Assembly: GCF_022701215.1 (NCBI RefSeq)
Contig: NZ_CP089976.1
Location: 630,001 to 662,000 of the forward strand
Direction: 5' to 3'
Length of the DNA stretch: 32,000 bases
Origin: Moraxella nasovis
GTDB taxonomy: Bacteria > Pseudomonadota > Gammaproteobacteria > Pseudomonadales > Moraxellaceae
Each line of letters opens with the position of its first letter. Within the stretch, counting starts at the first letter, position 1. Under the pieces are notes generated by a model. The model ran no database searches. It was not told the origin of the DNA and was given only the letters and a program-made list of their open reading frames with translations. Of the stretch, positions 6,561 through 13,576 are shown one piece after another. The position numbers and the translations under genes are program-made.

Positions 6561-8042
6561 ATGACACAATTTCATCAATTATCCGTCCATGAATTGGCAC
6601 AAGGCTTGACCAATAAAGACTTTTCAAGCGTGGAGCTGACAGAATATTTCATCAATCGCATTGGCAAATACGATGACACAATCAACAGCTTTATCACCCA
6701 TGATTTTGATCATGCCCTAAAAAATGCCCAAACAGCGGACCAATTGCGTACCAAAGGCGACACACGCCCCCTGCTTGGCGTGCCGATGGCTCATAAAGAC
6801 AACCTATGCACCAAAGGCGTACTGACTACGGCAGGCTCCAAGATTTTATATAACTTCGTCTCGCCTTATGACGCAACCGTGGTTGAGAATATCGCCAAGG
6901 CAGGATTTATCAACCTAGGCAAGCTCAACATGGACGAGTTTGCCATGGGGTCGGATAACGAATCTTCATACTTTGGGGCAGTGCATAATCCTTGGGATAC
7001 CGCCCGTGTACCTGGGGGGTCATCTGGGGGGTCGGCAGCTGCGGTAGCAAGTGGCTTTACCCCTGTCGCCACAGGCTCAGACACAGGTGGCTCTATCCGT
7101 CAGCCAGCAAGTTTTTGTGGCGTAACTGGCATCAAGCCCACCTATGGGCGTGTGTCTCGCTATGGCATGATTGCCTATGCGTCAAGCCTAGACCAAGCAG
7201 GCACCTTTGGCAAATCTGCCCTTGATTGTGCGTATCTGTTAAACCCCATGCAAGGACACGATGTCAAGGACGCAACATCTATCAACCGCCCCAATGATGA
7301 CTATGTGGCGGACATTTTGGCGGTTAAGACAGACGATAAGCCCTTAGCAGGCAAAAAAATCGGTGTTGCCAAAGCCTATTTTGGTCAAGGCTTGGACAGC
7401 GATGTTGAAAAATCAATCCGCACCGCCTTGGCTACCTATGAAGAGCTGGGGGCGACGATTGTGGAAGTGGACATCACCGACCCTGCAATCACTTTGGCGA
7501 CTTATTATCTGCTTGCCCCCGCCGAAGCCAGCTCCAATTTGTCTCGCTATGATGGCGTGCGTTTTGGCTATCGCTGTGAAGACCCCAAAGATTTGATGGA
7601 TTTGTACACACGCAGTCGCTCAGAAGGTTTTGGGGCGGAAGTGCAACGCCGTATCATCATGGGGACATACGCCCTATCGGCAGGCTATTTTGATGCCTAC
7701 TATACCAAAGCCCAAAAGGTTCGCCGTATCATCATGGAAGATTTCAAAAAAGCCTTTGAAACCTGCGATATCATCGCAAGCCCCACCGCACCGACAACCG
7801 CCTACAAATTGGGCGAATCGCTTGACCCTGCCACCATTTATCTTGGCGATGTCTATACCATTGGCGTAAATTTGGCAGGACTGCCTGCACTCTCCCACCC
7901 AGTCGGACAAGCAAACGGCTTGCCTGTGGGCTTACAGCTGATTGGCAAGCATTGGGCAGAAAGCGAGCTTTTAAAGACAGCTCATATTTATCAGGCGAAT
8001 ACTGATTTTCATGAGCAACTGCCTAAGTTTGCCAACACTTAA
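6561..8042 (+). CDS. gatA: Asp-tRNA(Asn)/Glu-tRNA(Gln) amidotransferase subunit A
   Basis: Amidase signature [12 protein letters not shown]...[12 protein letters not shown]. The sequence is collinear with Pseudomonas GatA from [16 protein letters not shown] onward. An alternative start lies at 6546. Confidence 0.97.
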
Positions 8043-8055
8043 TTTTAAGGAAAAC

Positions 8056-8568
8056 ATGATGGACATCATCATCAAACGCACAGAACAAAAGTACAGCGAT
8101 GGCGTACAAGCACTTTATCTTAGCCCAAGTGTATATAGCCAAACCCTACATCTACCCAGTCAATCGGCGGATAATTGGAAAAAGTGGCTTGGCAATATCC
8201 CTGACCATGTGCATTCTTTTGTGGCGGTATGTGATGATGGTGTCAACCAAAAGGTGGTTGGCAATGTTGCCTTAAAACTTGAAACAGCTGAACGCAGACG
8301 ACATATTGGCAGTTTTGTGATTGCGGTACACGATGAGCATCAAGGTCAAGGCATCGGCAAAAAACTACTAAATACCATCATTGATTTGGCGGATAATTGG
8401 CTTAATTTAACTCGCCTAGAACTCACCGTTTATACCGATAACGAAAAAGCCATTCAGCTGTATCAAAAATTTGGCTTTGACATTGAAGGCGAGCATAGGC
8501 AGTTTGCATTTAGACACGGCAAGTTCGTCAATGCCTATACGATGGCAAGAATTAAGAGCGAAAGCTAA
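8056..8568 (+). CDS. GNAT family N-acetyltransferase (YhhY-like)
   Basis: Acetyl-CoA motif QGQGIGKKLL. The C-terminal half, NWLNLTRLELTVYTDNEKAIQLYQKFGFDIEGEHRQFAFRHGKFVNAYTMARI, closely resembles E. coli YhhY as I recall it. An AAGGA Shine-Dalgarno sequence sits 13 nt after the gatA stop. The track start at 8011 lies inside gatA and is unlikely. Confidence 0.85.
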   Translation: MMDIIIKRTEQKYSDGVQALYLSPSVYSQTLHLPSQSADNWKKWLGNIPDHVHSFVAVCDDGVNQKVVGNVALKLETAERRRHIGSFVIAVHDEHQGQGIGKKLLNTIIDLADNWLNLTRLELTVYTDNEKAIQLYQKFGFDIEGEHRQFAFRHGKFVNAYTMARIKSES

Positions 8569-8577
8569 GGAGTTGGT

Positions 8578-8844
8578 ATGCAAACTGTTACTTTGCAATT
8601 TGATGATGTCTATTATCAAGAATTGGTTAGTCAAGTGGGCGAAGACAATTTATCAGACTTTTTTAAAACAGTATCCGAACCCTATTTATGGCTTCACAAA
8701 AAAAGTCATGAGCCATCAGATGATGAATTAAGCCCAATGCACCGAAAAATCTTAGATGAACGCTTGGCAAGTTACCAATCTGATGGCAATAAAGGCAAGC
8801 CCTATCAATCGGTTTTGGCTGATATTCGCAAAACACTTGGTTAA
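8578..8844 (+). CDS. Putative type II antitoxin (addiction-module component, PF09720/TIGR02574-like)
   Basis: The C-terminal LSPMHRKILDERLASYQSDGNKGKPYQSVLADIRKTL fits the LS..K.LD.RLA.Y......P...V...IR pattern of that family. It lies immediately upstream of a ParE-like ORF. A GGAG Shine-Dalgarno sequence sits 9 nt after the GNAT stop. Confidence 0.7.
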   Translation: MQTVTLQFDDVYYQELVSQVGEDNLSDFFKTVSEPYLWLHKKSHEPSDDELSPMHRKILDERLASYQSDGNKGKPYQSVLADIRKTLG

Positions 8845-8848
8845 CTGT

Positions 8849-9154
8849 ATGGCTTTTAATATTTTAATTCGCAGTGAAGCACAAAATGATATTGCACAAA
8901 TTGCCCATTGGTACAAAAGCCAAGCGAACAATCTGGACAAACGTTTTTTGACTGCTCTTGAACACACCTTGGAAAAATTAAGCTATATGGCAGACAGCCA
9001 TGCAATTATTTATCAAAATACTCGCAAAATTTTATTGCATAAATTCCCCTATGCAGTACATTATCAGATTGATGGTTTTGATGTGATTGTTTTTGCAGTA
9101 TTACACGGTAGCCAAAATCCCATCAATTGGCAAATTAGGGCGGACAATGTTTAA
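8849..9154 (+). CDS. RelE/ParE family toxin
   Basis: 101 aa starting MAFNILIRSEAQNDIAQIAHWY and ending ...FPYAVHYQIDGFDVIVFAVLHGSQNP, the typical ParE layout. The start is 4 nt after the antitoxin stop. The track ORF 8756..9154 starts too early, because it overlaps the antitoxin. Confidence 0.8.
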   Translation: MAFNILIRSEAQNDIAQIAHWYKSQANNLDKRFLTALEHTLEKLSYMADSHAIIYQNTRKILLHKFPYAVHYQIDGFDVIVFAVLHGSQNPINWQIRADNV

Positions 9155-9275: not shown

Positions 9276-10754
9276 ATGACCATCTCCAATTCACCCAACC
9301 TACTCATTGACGGCTATGAAGTGATTATCGGCATTGAAATCCATTGCCAGTTAAACACGGACAGCAAAATATTCTCAAACGCTCCCACCACCTTTGGGCA
9401 AGCACCGAACACGGCAGCCACGATTGTGGATTTGGGTTTTCCTGGGGCATTGCCTGTCTTGAACGAAGGCGTGATTGAGCGTGCCTTAAAATTTGGCTTA
9501 GGAGTCAATGCCAAACTTGGCACCTATAACACCTTTGACCGCAAAAACTACTTTTATCCTGACCTACCCAAAGGCTACCAAATCACCCAAATGGCAAACC
9601 CTATTGTCGGCAAAGGCTACATTGACGTGCTCGTCAATGCAGGGCAAAAAGACGAATACACCAAGCGTATCGGCATCACACGGGCTCACCTAGAAGAAGA
9701 TGCAGGAAAATCAGTGCATGATGCTGTACCACAGATGACAGGCGTGGACTTAAACCGTGCTGGCACACCCTTGATTGAGATTGTCTCTGAACCTGATATG
9801 CGTTCGGTGGGTGAAGCTGTGGCTTATGTCAAGACCATTCATGAGCTGGTTACTTGGCTTGGCATCTCAGACGCTGTCATGGCAGAAGGCTCGTTTCGTG
9901 CCGACATCAACGTCTCAGTGCATAAGCCAAACACCCCCTTTGGCACACGCTGTGAGCTAAAAAACCTAAATTCATTTCGCTTTATTGAACGTGCCATCAA
10001 ATCAGAAGTGGAGCGACAAATCGATCTGATTGAAGACGGTGGAACAGTCGTGCAAGCCACTCGCCTATACGACCCTGAGCAAGATGAAACCCGTGCCATG
10101 CGTACCAAAGAAGAAGCCAACGACTACCGCTATTTTCCAGACCCCGACCTATTGCCTGTCGTGATTTCTGATGAAACGCTCGCCAAAGTGCGTGCCGATA
10201 TGCCAGAGCTACCTAGTCATCGTAAAGAGCGATTTGTGAATGAATTTGGCTTGACTGCTTATGACGCACTCGTGCTAAACGGTAGCCGTGAATTGTCGGA
10301 TTATTTTTTGCAAGTAGTTGATATTATTGGAAAAAACTACGCCAAGATTGGGGCAAACTGGGTCATGGGCGAGCTGTCTGGGGCATTAAATAAAAATGAA
10401 CTGACAATTGCAAACTCCCCCATCTCCGCCGAACGCTTGGCAGGGCTTATCATGCGTATCAATGACAACACCATCAGCGGTAAAATCGCCAAAGAAGTGT
10501 TTAGTTTTATGTGGGAGACTGACAAAACCGCCGATGAAATCATCAATGAAAAAGGACTAAAACAAGAAACCGACACAGGGGCGATTACCGCCATCATCAG
10601 CGAAGTCTTGGCGAATAATCAAGCGATGGTGGACGAGTACAAATCTGGCAAAGAAAAAGCCTTTAATGGGCTGGTTGGGCAAGTCATGAAAGCAAGTCGT
10701 GGCAAAGCAAACCCAGCTCAGGTCAATCAGTTGTTAAAAGAGATGATTGGGTGA
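9276..10754 (+). CDS. gatB: Asp-tRNA(Asn)/Glu-tRNA(Gln) amidotransferase subunit B
   Basis: [26 protein letters not shown], and the C-terminal GatB/YqeY tail ...[18 protein letters not shown] prefer the ATG at 9276 over the TTG at 9255. Confidence 0.97.
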
Positions 10755-10768
10755 ATTGGGTAAATGAT

Positions 10769-10796
10769 AAAGCCAAATCCAAATAGATTTGGCTTT
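10769..10796 (+). terminator. Hairpin after gatB (weak terminator)
   Basis: aaagccaaatc-caaata-gatttggcttt forms an 11-bp stem. The T-tract is poor (tatcat). Confidence 0.4.
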
Positions 10797-10833
10797 ATCA
10801 TAAAATATATTAACAAAAGGGAATAATATAATT

Positions 10834-12561
10834 ATGTCATTTCAAACACCAGTCACTATTGCGAATGCGATAAGTCAAATTGAAAATAGTAAATACTTAG
10901 TTCCAGCTATTCAAAGAGAATTTGTTTGGAAACACGATCGAATTGAGCAGCTTTTTGATTCACTTATGCAAGGCTACCCAATCAGCTCATTTTTATTTTG
11001 GGAGGTTCAAGAACAAAATGTCAATCAATTTAAATTTTATAAAATCATTAAAGATTTTCGTGAACGCTACAAAACCCACAATGAAGAATACAACACATCT
11101 GGATCCAATGGGTTTTACGCCATTTTAGACGGACAACAAAGATTAACATCATTATATATTGGCTTAAAGGGAAGTTTTGCCTATAAAACCCCTAGAAAAA
11201 AATGGGAAGATAATCAAAATTCATTACCTACTAGGGATTTGTATTTAAATATTACAAAGGAACTATCTGAACAAGAAAATGGAAGAAAATATCAGTTTCA
11301 ATTTTTAGATAGAAATTTAACCAACCAAAAAAATTTCTATGATAAAGATGAGCAAAAATGGTTCAGAGTATCACATATTTTAGACTATACTGATGATAAA
11401 AAATTAGGTGATATGATAAAGAATTTGGACAGCGAATTTGCTAGAAAATCTATCAGACAACTAAAAAGAGTTATTCATGAGAGACAAATTATAAATTTTT
11501 ATCTAGAAGAAGAACAAAATCTAGATAAAGCATTAAAAATATTTATAAGAATAAATAGTGGCGGAATAGCATTAAGTTTTTCGGATTTAATTATGTCTAT
11601 TGCTATTTCAAATTGGAAAACCAAAGACGCAAGAAGAGAAATATTAGGCTTGGTTGATGAGATAAAAAATAAAGATTTTCATATATCAAAAGATTTAATA
11701 TTAAAAACATTTTTATACCTATATAGTACAGATATTGGCTTTAAAGTAACAAATTTTTCATCGGAAAAAGCAAAAATATTTGAAGATAATTGGCTAAGTA
11801 TTAAGAATGCTATTTTATCTACCTTTGATTTGATTAAATCATTTGGTTTTGATGAATATAATTTAACATCAAAAAATTCCATCATTCCTATTATTTATTA
11901 CTTATATCATAGAAATATCTATAAAGACTTTACCCATAAAGTAGAATTTAAGAATGAAAGAAAAATCATAAAAGAATGGCTACATATTGTACTAATAAAC
12001 AGAGTTTTTGGCGGTACTTCTGATAGTACATTATCTCAAATCAGAAAAGTTTTTTCCAATGATGTGGTAAAAGAACCAATTAAATTAGACATTGATATAT
12101 TTCCTAAAATTCAAATGCTTGATAGTATTAGAAAAGACATGGTTATTGATTATGATAATATTTTAAATATACAATATGAAGATAAGTATGCCTTCTCTAT
12201 ATTGTCATTACTTTATCCCAATTTAGATTACAAAAACAACAATTTTCATAAAGACCATTTGCACCCAGAAACTAGCTACGAGCTATTAAGCGATGACTTA
12301 AAAGAAAAATATAGTCGTGAGGTTTATAATTCCATTATCAATTTACAAATGCTCGGTGCAAATGAAAATTCATCTAAACAAAACAAAGAATTAGCAGAAT
12401 GGGTTTCTCAAGAAACGCAAACCAAAAACAAAGAAGAATTTTTGGATAATCATTTAATTCCCGATATTGATTTGAGTTTAATGAATTTTGATGTATTTGT
12501 GGAAAAAAGAAAAGCGTTAATTATCAAAAAGTTAAAAGAATTAGTAGGCACTCTTGAATAA
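10834..12561 (+). CDS. DUF262 (ParB-like NTPase) / DUF1524 (His-Me finger nuclease) fusion protein, GmrSD-like putative type IV restriction/defense nuclease
   Basis: 575 aa. The N-terminus has VPAIQREFVWKHDRIEQLFDSLMQGYPISSFLFWEV and ILDGQQRLTSLYIG, the DUF262 hallmarks. The C-terminus has HKDHLHPE...NLQMLGANENSSKQNK, which is DUF1524/HNH-like. Codon usage is very A+T rich relative to its neighbours. Confidence 0.8.
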   Translation: MSFQTPVTIANAISQIENSKYLVPAIQREFVWKHDRIEQLFDSLMQGYPISSFLFWEVQEQNVNQFKFYKIIKDFRERYKTHNEEYNTSGSNGFYAILDGQQRLTSLYIGLKGSFAYKTPRKKWEDNQNSLPTRDLYLNITKELSEQENGRKYQFQFLDRNLTNQKNFYDKDEQKWFRVSHILDYTDDKKLGDMIKNLDSEFARKSIRQLKRVIHERQIINFYLEEEQNLDKALKIFIRINSGGIALSFSDLIMSIAISNWKTKDARREILGLVDEIKNKDFHISKDLILKTFLYLYSTDIGFKVTNFSSEKAKIFEDNWLSIKNAILSTFDLIKSFGFDEYNLTSKNSIIPIIYYLYHRNIYKDFTHKVEFKNERKIIKEWLHIVLINRVFGGTSDSTLSQIRKVFSNDVVKEPIKLDIDIFPKIQMLDSIRKDMVIDYDNILNIQYEDKYAFSILSLLYPNLDYKNNNFHKDHLHPETSYELLSDDLKEKYSREVYNSIINLQMLGANENSSKQNKELAEWVSQETQTKNKEEFLDNHLIPDIDLSLMNFDVFVEKRKALIIKKLKELVGTLE

Positions 12562-12692
12562 TGAAAAATGATAACACAAAACCAATCAAGCCCCTACTCC
12601 ACCGTGCCGACAGCCTACTCTTTGCCACAGGGGCAGACATTGTGGACAGCAGTCTGCCTGACCTGACTTTCGGAGCAATAGCGGTATATAGC

Positions 12693-12743
12693 AAGGCAAA
12701 CCCTGCACAGATCAATCAGCTGTTAAAGCAGATGCTTGGGTAA
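12693..12743 (+). pseudogene. Displaced remnant of the gatB 3' end (last 16 codons plus stop)
   Basis: It encodes KANPAQINQLLKQMLG*, compared with [16 protein letters not shown] for gatB. By my hand alignment, 42 of 51 nt are identical to 10704-10754. Confidence 0.75.
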
Positions 12744-12762
12744 AGCAAATAATTAAAAATTT

Positions 12763-12794
12763 AGTCAAATCCAACGTGGGTTTGGCTTTTTTTT
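12763..12794 (+). terminator. Intrinsic terminator following the gatB remnant
   Basis: agtcaaatcc-aacgt-gggtttggct forms 10 bp including two G:U pairs, followed by tttttttt. It is related in sequence to the hairpin at 10769-10796. Confidence 0.6.
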
Positions 12795-12876
12795 GGCGAT
12801 AAATTTTATCTTTATTTTTGCCTAACTTCCACTTTAAATTTTAAAAAAAATTAACAACAAAATCATTACTTTTTTA

Positions 12877-12905
12877 TTGCCATTTAAAATACTTTTTGTT
12901 ATATT
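12877..12905 (+). promoter_or_regulatory. Putative sigma70 promoter of the dioxygenase gene
   Basis: TTGCCA-17 nt-TATATT, about 35 nt upstream of the ATG at 12941. Confidence 0.4.
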
Positions 12906-12940: not shown

Positions 12941-13576
12941 ATGGCTTCACTACTGCACACAGGAACCCTACCAACCGACATCATCGCTGCCTTAGAGGGT
13001 GATTTTGATGGACTAAAACCTAGCGTCTATAAAGATGGTAGCTATCGCCTGCGTCGTTATTCCAAAATCGTCTATAACAAAGACGACAAGCACATTGATT
13101 TACTGCGTGGCACAAACTTTTGCCAAAGCAGTGAATTTAATAAATTCCAAGGCGATGTGGTGCGTGAATATGACGACATCAGCGATGAACTCATTGCCAG
13201 CGAAGGTTTTTTACGCATTGTTGATACCTTTGCTAACGAAGGCGGTTTACCAAAAGACGCAACTATTGATGTACATCAAATTCGTGTGGTCGCCAAAGAC
13301 CCAGCCAAACCTACCGTAACCACCCCAGAAGGCATTCATCAAGACGGCTACAACCGCATTGGTATGTTCACCGTCAGCTTCAAAAATGCCGAAGGAGCAG
13401 AGCTTCGTATCTATAGCGATAACGACCCTGACACCGTCCTAGAAAAAATCCCCAGCAAAACAGGCGGATACTGCGTGGTAGATGATAGCGATTTATGGCA
13501 TTATGCTACCGAGATTAGCAGTGATGACGGCAATGGTTATTGGGATTTGTTTGTTTTGACTGCCAATATGAACTGA
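12941..13576 (+). CDS. 2OG-Fe dioxygenase family protein (PF10014-like)
   Basis: 211 aa with an HxD motif in PEGIHQDG and a distal His in DLWHYATEI. The overall layout (YRLRRYS...; VHQIRV...) matches my recollection of the PF10014 family that includes L-isoleucine 4-hydroxylase. It is monocistronic, with its own promoter and terminator. Confidence 0.65.
   Translation: MASLLHTGTLPTDIIAALEGDFDGLKPSVYKDGSYRLRRYSKIVYNKDDKHIDLLRGTNFCQSSEFNKFQGDVVREYDDISDELIASEGFLRIVDTFANEGGLPKDATIDVHQIRVVAKDPAKPTVTTPEGIHQDGYNRIGMFTVSFKNAEGAELRIYSDNDPDTVLEKIPSKTGGYCVVDDSDLWHYATEISSDDGNGYWDLFVLTANMN

Follow-up and report, generated by a model that had tools for sequence, protein, structure and literature searches.

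A brxU-like gene downstream of gatB

Immediately downstream of gatB, the window (the whole 32-kb stretch of DNA analysed here) carries an open reading frame whose product resembles the restriction enzyme BrxU. The gene and the two domains of its product lie as follows:

10834-12561 (+): brxU-like (HEC-05 family) gene, assigned by PADLOC HEC-05, phmmer (PDB 7p9k) and Foldseek matches
10864-11601 (+): DUF262 / GmrSD_N NTPase domain, residues 11-256, assigned by Pfam PF03235 (E 2.2e-33) and residue mapping to BrxU
12247-12402 (+): DUF1524 His-Me finger nuclease core, with H472-K-D474-H475-L-H477-P478, N503, N510-E-N512 and E522, assigned by alignment to D474, H475 and E528 of BrxU

The frame runs from ATG to TAA and encodes 575 aa. 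Since stop codons are frequent in DNA of 27% GC, a frame of this length is not a product of chance. The homologue consensus, MSFQTP, backs the start codon. The protein is spanned over 97-100% of its length by hundreds of homologues 571-584 aa long, indicating that the frame is intact. The earlier note, made from the sequence alone, had described a gene with N-terminal QREFVW and DGQQRLTSL motifs and a nuclease motif near the C-terminus, and all of these were located in the 575-aa translation. Q27-R28 lies within PAIQREFVW, S43 within QLFDS, and D99-G-Q-Q-R103 (nt 11128-11142) within ILDGQQRLTSL, while F237-IRIN forms an FxxxN motif at residues 237-241. Towards the C-terminus are H472-K-D474-H475-L-H477-P478-E479 (FHKDHLHPE, with DHLHP at nt 12253-12267) and N503-LQMLGANENSSKQNK; the C-terminal stretch NLQMLGANENSSKQNK is likewise present as the earlier note had named it. 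Only the spelling of the nuclease pattern had to be amended, as 'H..DH..PE' holds one dot too many.

The encoded protein belongs to the BrxU/HEC-05 family

The gene had been proposed to encode a DUF262 module fused to a His-Me finger nuclease of the GmrSD, BrxU and SspE type. Profile, sequence and fold comparisons upheld the fusion and narrowed the likeness to BrxU/HEC-05 specifically, with SspE, DndI and HEC-06 matching weakly. The Pfam profile GmrSD_N (DUF262, PF03235) matched residues 11-256 with 116.5 bits (E 2.2e-33), above the gathering score. Thus, Pfam confirmed the first of the two proposed domains; the second, GmrSD_C (DUF1524, PF07510), scored 16.1 bits and so fell short of the 23-bit cut-off. 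Close homologues are annotated with PF03235 alone. The C-terminal nuclease was therefore assigned by residue-by-residue alignment to BrxU and by fold match rather than by Pfam. The NCBIfam search with the brxU-like protein matched no family, and exact look-ups of this protein, of the 2OG-Fe dioxygenase and of the FKBP encoded in the window returned no record.

Two HEC-05 models of PADLOC matched the protein end to end, PDLC04150 with E 8e-209 and PDLC04151 with E 1.5e-198; the former is the top sub-model of the window protein and the latter that of BrxU. In a phmmer search against the PDB, residues 3-567 aligned to residues 2-574 of BrxU chain 7p9k_A (E 1.2e-110), and BrxU of E. fergusonii (7P9K/7P9M) was the sole real match among the PDB sequences. 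The two proteins are identical at 209 of 554 positions (37.7%). Residues 110-460, in which the earlier note could place no motif, proved to be collinear with BrxU without large gaps, and include the FIRIN sequence at 237-241 (the FxxxN motif) and a helical linker domain; this stretch belongs to the architecture already known rather than to a new insertion.

Structure prediction, which the earlier note had proposed as a check, likewise placed the protein nearest to BrxU. An AlphaFold2 (AF2) model was built on 45 homologues (pLDDT 78.8), and its top three Foldseek matches were all BrxU chains, with E values from 7.6e-27 to 2e-24. The best of these, 7p9k_A (E 7.6e-27, probability 1.00), gave a TM-score of 0.50 over the whole model, a value that probably arises because AF2 does not arrange the domains as in the intertwined dimer. 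AlphaFold has been reported to misplace the DUF262 domain relative to the intertwined crystal dimer (Payne et al., 10.1101/2024.01.29.577857).

Residues essential for BrxU function are conserved

Mutational analysis of BrxU has shown that the substitutions S42A/D, Q101A, R102A, D474A and H475A abolish DNA cleavage and phage resistance, that N519A and E528A are weak in vivo only, and that Q35A, R38A and N485A behave like the wild type (Picton et al., PMC8565348). The corresponding positions of the window protein are as follows:

S43, Q102, R103, D474 and H475: all conserved with BrxU S42, Q101, R102, D474 and H475 (loss of function)
E522: conserved with BrxU E528 (weak in vivo)
R36, Q39 and Y482: differ from BrxU Q35, R38 and N485 (like wild type)
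S513: replaces BrxU N519 (weak in vivo) and stands beside the invariant N512

The D474-H475-L-H-P segment of the window protein aligns exactly to D474-H475-I-Y-P of BrxU. S43, Q102, R103, D474, H475 and E522, together with the N-terminal motif residues and the remaining residues listed for the nuclease core, do not vary among 45 homologues (56-75% identity). Degenerate catalytic residues, which had been named as a possible objection to the nuclease assignment, were not seen, as every BrxU loss-of-function position is conserved. The protein is a member of the BrxU/HEC-05 family with intact catalytic residues and the corresponding fold. The gene product is very probably a type IV restriction endonuclease of this family, within the GmrSD superfamily, that is modification-dependent and works as a single protein.

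The gene stands alone, as is normal for its family

Methyltransferase, BREX, Dnd and Ssp genes were sought among all open reading frames of 110 aa or longer in the 32-kb window and none was found, in agreement with the earlier description of the gene as solitary; nor is it embedded in a BREX, Hma or type I restriction-modification (R-M) locus within the window. The remaining frames of this size encode housekeeping proteins (including ribosomal proteins, RNase G, Maf, GatCAB, FKBP, peptidase M61, Pth, HemN, ThiD, ProC, TilS, MatE and MltB), a GNAT acetyltransferase, a ParE-like toxin and a PF10014 2OG-Fe dioxygenase. The window comes from a Moraxella species: its FKBP falls into one cluster with the FKBPs of M. 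bovoculi, M. ovis and M. haemolytica, and its GatB is approximately 92% identical to M. bovoculi GatB.

Two neighbours were considered as partners and rejected. The 2OG-Fe dioxygenase (12941-13576), which might have served, for example, as a DNA-base hydroxylase, belongs to PF10014, has no PADLOC match and a host-like GC content, has its own promoter-like site, and is separated from the brxU-like gene by a terminator. The 60-aa frame at 12561-12743, a possible partner or antitoxin, is a chimera of a SIR2 N-terminus and a GatB C-terminus with no Pfam match; at the locus of the closest homologue, a terminator hairpin alone occupies its place.

BREX, Hma and type I R-M loci gave the family its names and are not required for its function. 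Among 121 nearest-neighbour frames at metagenomic loci of HEC-05 homologues, HsdM was found 6 times and BrxL once, and a stand-alone gene is normal for the BrxU/HEC-05 family. HEC-05 is BrxU, at 99.2% identity, and protects when cloned alone (Payne et al., 10.1101/2024.01.29.577857); the paper on V. cholerae TgvAB likewise describes BrxU/HEC-05 as functioning independently. Homologues are common on enterobacterial plasmids (379 records), some occur in a few phage records, and a Mannheimia homologue sits in a defence island. The suggestion that the locus might hold an undescribed system was not borne out: a standard PADLOC run would label the gene HEC-05, and its solitary state is usual for the family.

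The site after gatB carries alternative defence genes in related bacteria

The brxU-like gene has a GC content of 0.271 and a GC3 of 0.21, compared with 0.473 and 0.50 for gatB and a GC content of 0.42 for the window. This contrast of 0.27 with surroundings of 0.42-0.47 bears out the view that the gene lies in a laterally acquired cassette beside an essential operon (gatCAB). Several further Moraxellaceae have a HEC-05 homologue immediately behind gatB, repeatedly so in Moraxella and Acinetobacter (identities are to the window protein):

L081, Moraxella-like metagenome contig: HEC-05 after gatB, 75% identity
L093, M. bovoculi-like assembly: HEC-05 after gatB, 63% identity
L178, A. colistiniresistens: HEC-05 after gatB with one extra frame between, 62% identity
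L128, metagenome contig: HEC-05 after gatB, 60% identity
L094-L097, Acinetobacter schindleri: HEC-05 after gatB, 59% identity

Among the other metagenomic loci that retain more than 600 nt upstream of the HEC-05 gene, gatB was found in none of 61. Between gatB and a SIR2-family gene, M. bovoculi and M. ovis carry one of four cargoes:

HEC-05 (L093)
HEC-06-like GmrSD of 557 aa, 22% identical to the window protein in the N-terminal domain (L182, M. bovoculi-like)
Type IIG R-M enzyme with a specificity subunit (L091, L179 and L180; split in L090)
Two frames of 181 and 131 aa of unknown function

Given these four alternatives, the site in M. bovoculi and M. ovis is a slot for the exchange of defence genes with core genes on its flanks. 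A literature search found no description of a defence hotspot linked to gatB.

A recombination scar follows the brxU-like gene

The sequences on both sides of the brxU-like gene were compared with each other and with the related loci. The flanking features are listed below:

10702-10754 (+): 3' end of gatB, copy 1 of an imperfect direct repeat, with gatB intact (local alignment, GatB Pfam domains)
10764-10801 (+): perfect 16-bp hairpin after gatB without a T-run (inverted repeat, 100% complementary)
12582-12703 (+): degraded 5' end of a SIR2-family gene, approximately 40 codons (DNA and protein alignments)
12691-12743 (+): orphan second gatB 3' end (…KANPAQINQLLKQMLG*), identical to copy 1 at 44 of the last 54 nt
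12763-12797 (+): intrinsic terminator, hairpin plus T-run (terminator scan, 12763-12787), aligning to the hairpin after gatB

Local alignment of 10702-10796 with 12691-12789 gave 74 identities in 99 positions (75%) and a score of 71, the maximum among shuffled sequences being 26; the repeated part comprises the last 53 nt of gatB and the hairpin behind it. The SIR2 remnant at 12582-12703 aligned to 9926-10045 of L093 with 91 identities in 124 positions (73%), scoring 77, where shuffled sequences reached 24 at most. The slot after gatB is followed by a SIR2-family gene in M. bovoculi and M. ovis, and the window retains the first 120 nt or so of that gene. The remnant and the second gatB tract overlap in GCAAGGCAAACCC (12691-12703). 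The 180 nt after the brxU-like gene are thus a recombination scar, which joins a truncated SIR2 start to a second 3' end of gatB. The variability of the slot in related Moraxella and the foreign base composition of the gene are, like the scar, directly apparent.

The simplest reading of the scar is illegitimate recombination at a shared stretch. The brxU-like gene would have entered the chromosome by recombination at the variable slot immediately downstream of gatB, and a gatB-brxU-SIR2 arrangement would have been joined to a gatB-terminator-dioxygenase arrangement by illegitimate recombination at the short GCAAGGCAAACCC common to both. Sliding identity comparison of gatB with M. bovoculi revealed no clear step that would mark a breakpoint inside the gene; therefore, neither copy 1 nor copy 2 can be designated the native gatB 3' end. 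The scar would fit homology-facilitated recombination in a lineage capable of natural transformation, and both Moraxella and Acinetobacter are naturally competent. A self-mobile element that targets gatB was considered and rejected: the locus has neither a recombinase or transposase gene nor long inverted repeats on its flanks, and the flanking direct repeat consists of diverged gatB sequence rather than a target-site duplication.

The two hairpins also bear on transcription. The one after gatB lies 33 nt upstream of the brxU-like start and was not called by the terminator scan; it is a weak terminator at best. In the interval from gatB to the next gene, the site at 12763-12797, beyond the brxU-like gene, was the only one found to resemble a terminator. 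The 79 nt upstream of the brxU-like frame yielded no clear promoter. Since the first hairpin has no T-run and the sole terminator lies beyond the gene, read-through transcription from gatCAB into the brxU-like gene is possible.

Proposed mechanism and alternative explanations

By homology to E. fergusonii BrxU, the brxU-like protein is expected to form an intertwined homodimer. NTP binding at the DUF262 domain (S43 of QLFDS; Q102 and R103 of DGQQR) would drive dissociation of the dimer into monomers, and hydrolysis and re-association on DNA would then enable cleavage by the DUF1524 His-Me finger nuclease at the C-terminus (D474/H475). This nuclease would degrade DNA with modified cytosines, such as 5mC, 5hmC and glycosylated hmC; phages and other incoming modified DNA would be restricted, unmodified host DNA would be spared, and no partner gene would be needed. 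A host cytosine methyltransferase, for which the 32 kb of the window gave no gene, would conflict with such an enzyme. The model for this cycle is BrxU itself, an intertwined dimer that any common NTP shifts to monomers, and in which DUF262 hydrolysis and re-association precede cleavage of 5mC, 5hmC and glucosyl-hmC DNA by the DUF1524 HNH/His-Me domain (PMC8565348). Its preferred substrate is glc-5mdC, and it is inhibited by T4 IPI* (PMC12409352); arabinosylated cytosines are also cut (PMC13390438). Enzymatic activity, the dimer cycle, the modified-cytosine target and an anti-phage role are attributed to the window protein by analogy, and at 38% identity to the only characterised member its substrate range may differ from that of BrxU.

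A protein with the fold and chemistry of BrxU might instead act on another target, either, for example, hypermodified thymidine, 7-deazaguanine or N6-modified adenine in place of modified cytosine, or mainly methylated transforming or plasmid DNA in place of phages. Identity to BrxU is no more than 37.7%, the best HEC-05 sub-model is PDLC04150 rather than the PDLC04151 of BrxU, in M. bovoculi and M. ovis a type IIG R-M system can occupy the slot instead, and Moraxella and Acinetobacter are naturally competent. The modification-recognition pocket of BrxU is also undefined, so specificity determinants cannot be compared (PMC8565348). However, modified cytosines are the target of every characterised member of the BrxU/GmrSD branch, BrxU being broadly promiscuous among them, and on PDLC04151, the best-fitting sub-model for BrxU, the window protein still reaches E 1.5e-198; such a change of target seems unlikely to us. 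Far less credible is a protein of the SspE/DndI kind, the effector arm of an Ssp or Dnd system, which would sense host phosphorothioate and nick foreign DNA that lacks it. The DUF262 plus DUF1524 architecture is common to both groups, PADLOC gave weak SspE matches (E 1.4e-6, residues 21-109 only), and Foldseek found, beyond BrxU, DndI 9jfl (E 0.016) and SspE 7drr (E 0.068). Nevertheless, sspABCD and dnd genes are absent from the window, SspE profiles of some 770 positions match the first 90 residues only, and BrxU matches better by about 100 orders of magnitude. The protein also keeps the (R/Q)LFDS motif, reported to be absent from SspE (Payne et al., 10.1101/2024.01.29.577857).

The gene could also be a silent or decaying passenger, an intact frame that is unexpressed or inactive and was left by the recombination that truncated the SIR2 gene. 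The missing consensus promoter between the gatB hairpin and the start codon and the clearly degraded SIR2 gene next door would fit such a fate, and the very low GC content could attract xenogeneic silencing. Against this, the frame is full-length, with 99% coverage when compared with the hundreds of 571-584-aa homologues, it keeps every invariant residue of the family, and read-through from gatCAB is plausible past a hairpin without a T-run, the sole terminator-like site lying after the gene. We consider this fate improbable and favour a functional BrxU/HEC-05-type type IV restriction enzyme. Two broader readings go further: the site after gatB may be one at which recombination exchanges defence genes throughout the Moraxellaceae, and this HEC-05 clade may have a modification spectrum unlike that of E. 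fergusonii BrxU. On the first reading, the slot holds strongly diverged and persistently AT-rich HEC-05 alleles in Moraxella and Acinetobacter, besides the alternative cargoes of M. bovoculi and M. ovis, and the scar in the window would record one such exchange. These readings are tentative and rather doubtful.

Comparison with known systems

The annotation 'DUF262 domain-containing protein' can be replaced by BrxU/HEC-05-type type IV restriction enzyme, with the prediction that the Moraxella host restricts phages, plasmids or transforming DNA with modified cytosines. No new mechanism is opened, and the added value is modest and comparative: restriction genes of types IV and IIG are swapped among Moraxella at a slot behind gatB that has core genes on its flanks and lies within or beside an essential operon, and the scar lets one exchange event be reconstructed.

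The closest known system is BrxU of the E. fergusonii plasmid pEFER (PDB 7P9K/7P9M), whose PDB chain has 587 residues compared with 575 aa here. Both proteins have the QR, xLFDS (with the dimer-switch serine), DGQQR, FxxxN and DHxxP motifs, their whole-length alignment is collinear, and the predicted fold is alike. Both are single-protein systems, as experiment has shown for BrxU. They differ in 62% of aligned residues, including R38 to Q39 and N519 to S513, and in setting: BrxU lies inside a plasmid BREX locus, whereas the window gene is chromosomal, solitary and downstream of gatB.

Eco94GmrSD, EcoCT GmrSD and HEC-06 belong to the same superfamily of DUF262 NTPase, linker and DUF1524 nuclease and follow the same modification-dependent restriction logic. 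However, the HEC-06 profile matches marginally (E 5.1e-6), over residues 15-46 only (about 30 residues), and the HEC-06-like GmrSD that occupies the same slot in L182 has 22% identity to the window protein over the N-terminal domain. GmrSD/HEC-06 proteins are without the RLFDS motif (Payne et al., 10.1101/2024.01.29.577857), and the window protein has QLFDS. SspE and DndI share the two-domain DUF262-DUF1524 superfamily and are distant fold matches, but they rely on modification genes of the Ssp or Dnd type, none of which lies in the window, and the sequence similarity to SspE is confined to approximately 90 N-terminal residues. The brxU-like protein is therefore an uncharacterised member of the known BrxU/HEC-05 family, not a new system; what novelty it may add lies in possible differences of substrate range and in the exchange slot downstream of gatB.

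Variable slots around gatB

In the group formed by M. bovoculi and M. ovis, the interval from gatB to SIR2/FKBP serves as a slot with varying defence genes. A second variable slot is located between gatA and gatB, within the essential gatCAB operon. The features concerned are as follows (window coordinates):

8011-9154, gatA-gatB slot, compared with loci L088, L089, L179, L180 and L185
10755-12940, slot after gatB with variable cargo, compared with loci L088-L091, L093 and L179-L185
12561-12797, 60-aa chimeric pseudo-ORF and terminator
12941-13576, PF10014 2OG-Fe dioxygenase (E 9e-41), directly 3' of the pseudo-ORF and terminator

Downstream of gatB, loci from M. bovoculi and M. ovis carried as alternative cargoes HEC-05, a HEC-06-like GmrSD, a type IIG R-M enzyme with an S subunit, and unknown ORFs of 181 and 131 aa. 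HEC-05 homologues likewise lie immediately 3' of gatB in two Acinetobacter species. The cargo of the gatA-gatB slot in the window consists of a GNAT gene, an 88-aa ORF (8578-8844) and a ParE-like toxin gene; the same slot carries a GNAT or beta-lactamase gene in M. bovoculi, and a PIN-domain protein together with a 78-aa ORF in M. ovis.

Seven independent Logan contigs encoding a 75%-identical homologue (L081-L087) were found to share a common start approximately 95 nt upstream of the gene, within the gatB 3' end. This shared start resembles a branch of the assembly graph at the edge of the slot and suggests polymorphism of the slot within the samples concerned.

Recombination scar and adjacent dioxygenase gene

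The region at 12561-12797 is a recombination scar. Its pseudo-ORF begins as a degraded SIR2 5' end and continues as a second, orphan gatB 3' end; the junction falls at a short stretch common to both (12691-12703). The dioxygenase gene beyond the scar has a host-like GC content and its own promoter-like site (12877-12905). It had no match in PADLOC and was not present at the corresponding position in the examined M. bovoculi and M. ovis loci.

Divergence and distant homologues

The GC3 of all Moraxellaceae brxU-like alleles (window 10834-12561; Moraxella-like contig L081; M. bovoculi-like L093; Acinetobacter L094, L097 and L178) was 21-23%, compared with 43-50% for host gatB. Despite this uniformly low GC3, their mutual identity was only 59-75%, and the low GC3 of such diverged alleles may reflect either import on repeated occasions or the absence of amelioration.

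Three HEC-05 homologues (P0022, P0061 and P0068; alignment A5) are 94-97% identical although their annotated sources are MAGs of Balneolaceae, Saprospiraceae and Crocinitomicaceae. This points either to a very recent transfer across distant lineages or to errors in the binning of the MAGs. In Mannheimia haemolytica (L186), a 57%-identical homologue is situated inside a cluster that resembles a defence island. The other members of this cluster are a WYL regulator, a PP2C, two SIR2 proteins, a PDDEXK_4 nuclease and an AAA/NACHT-like ATPase.
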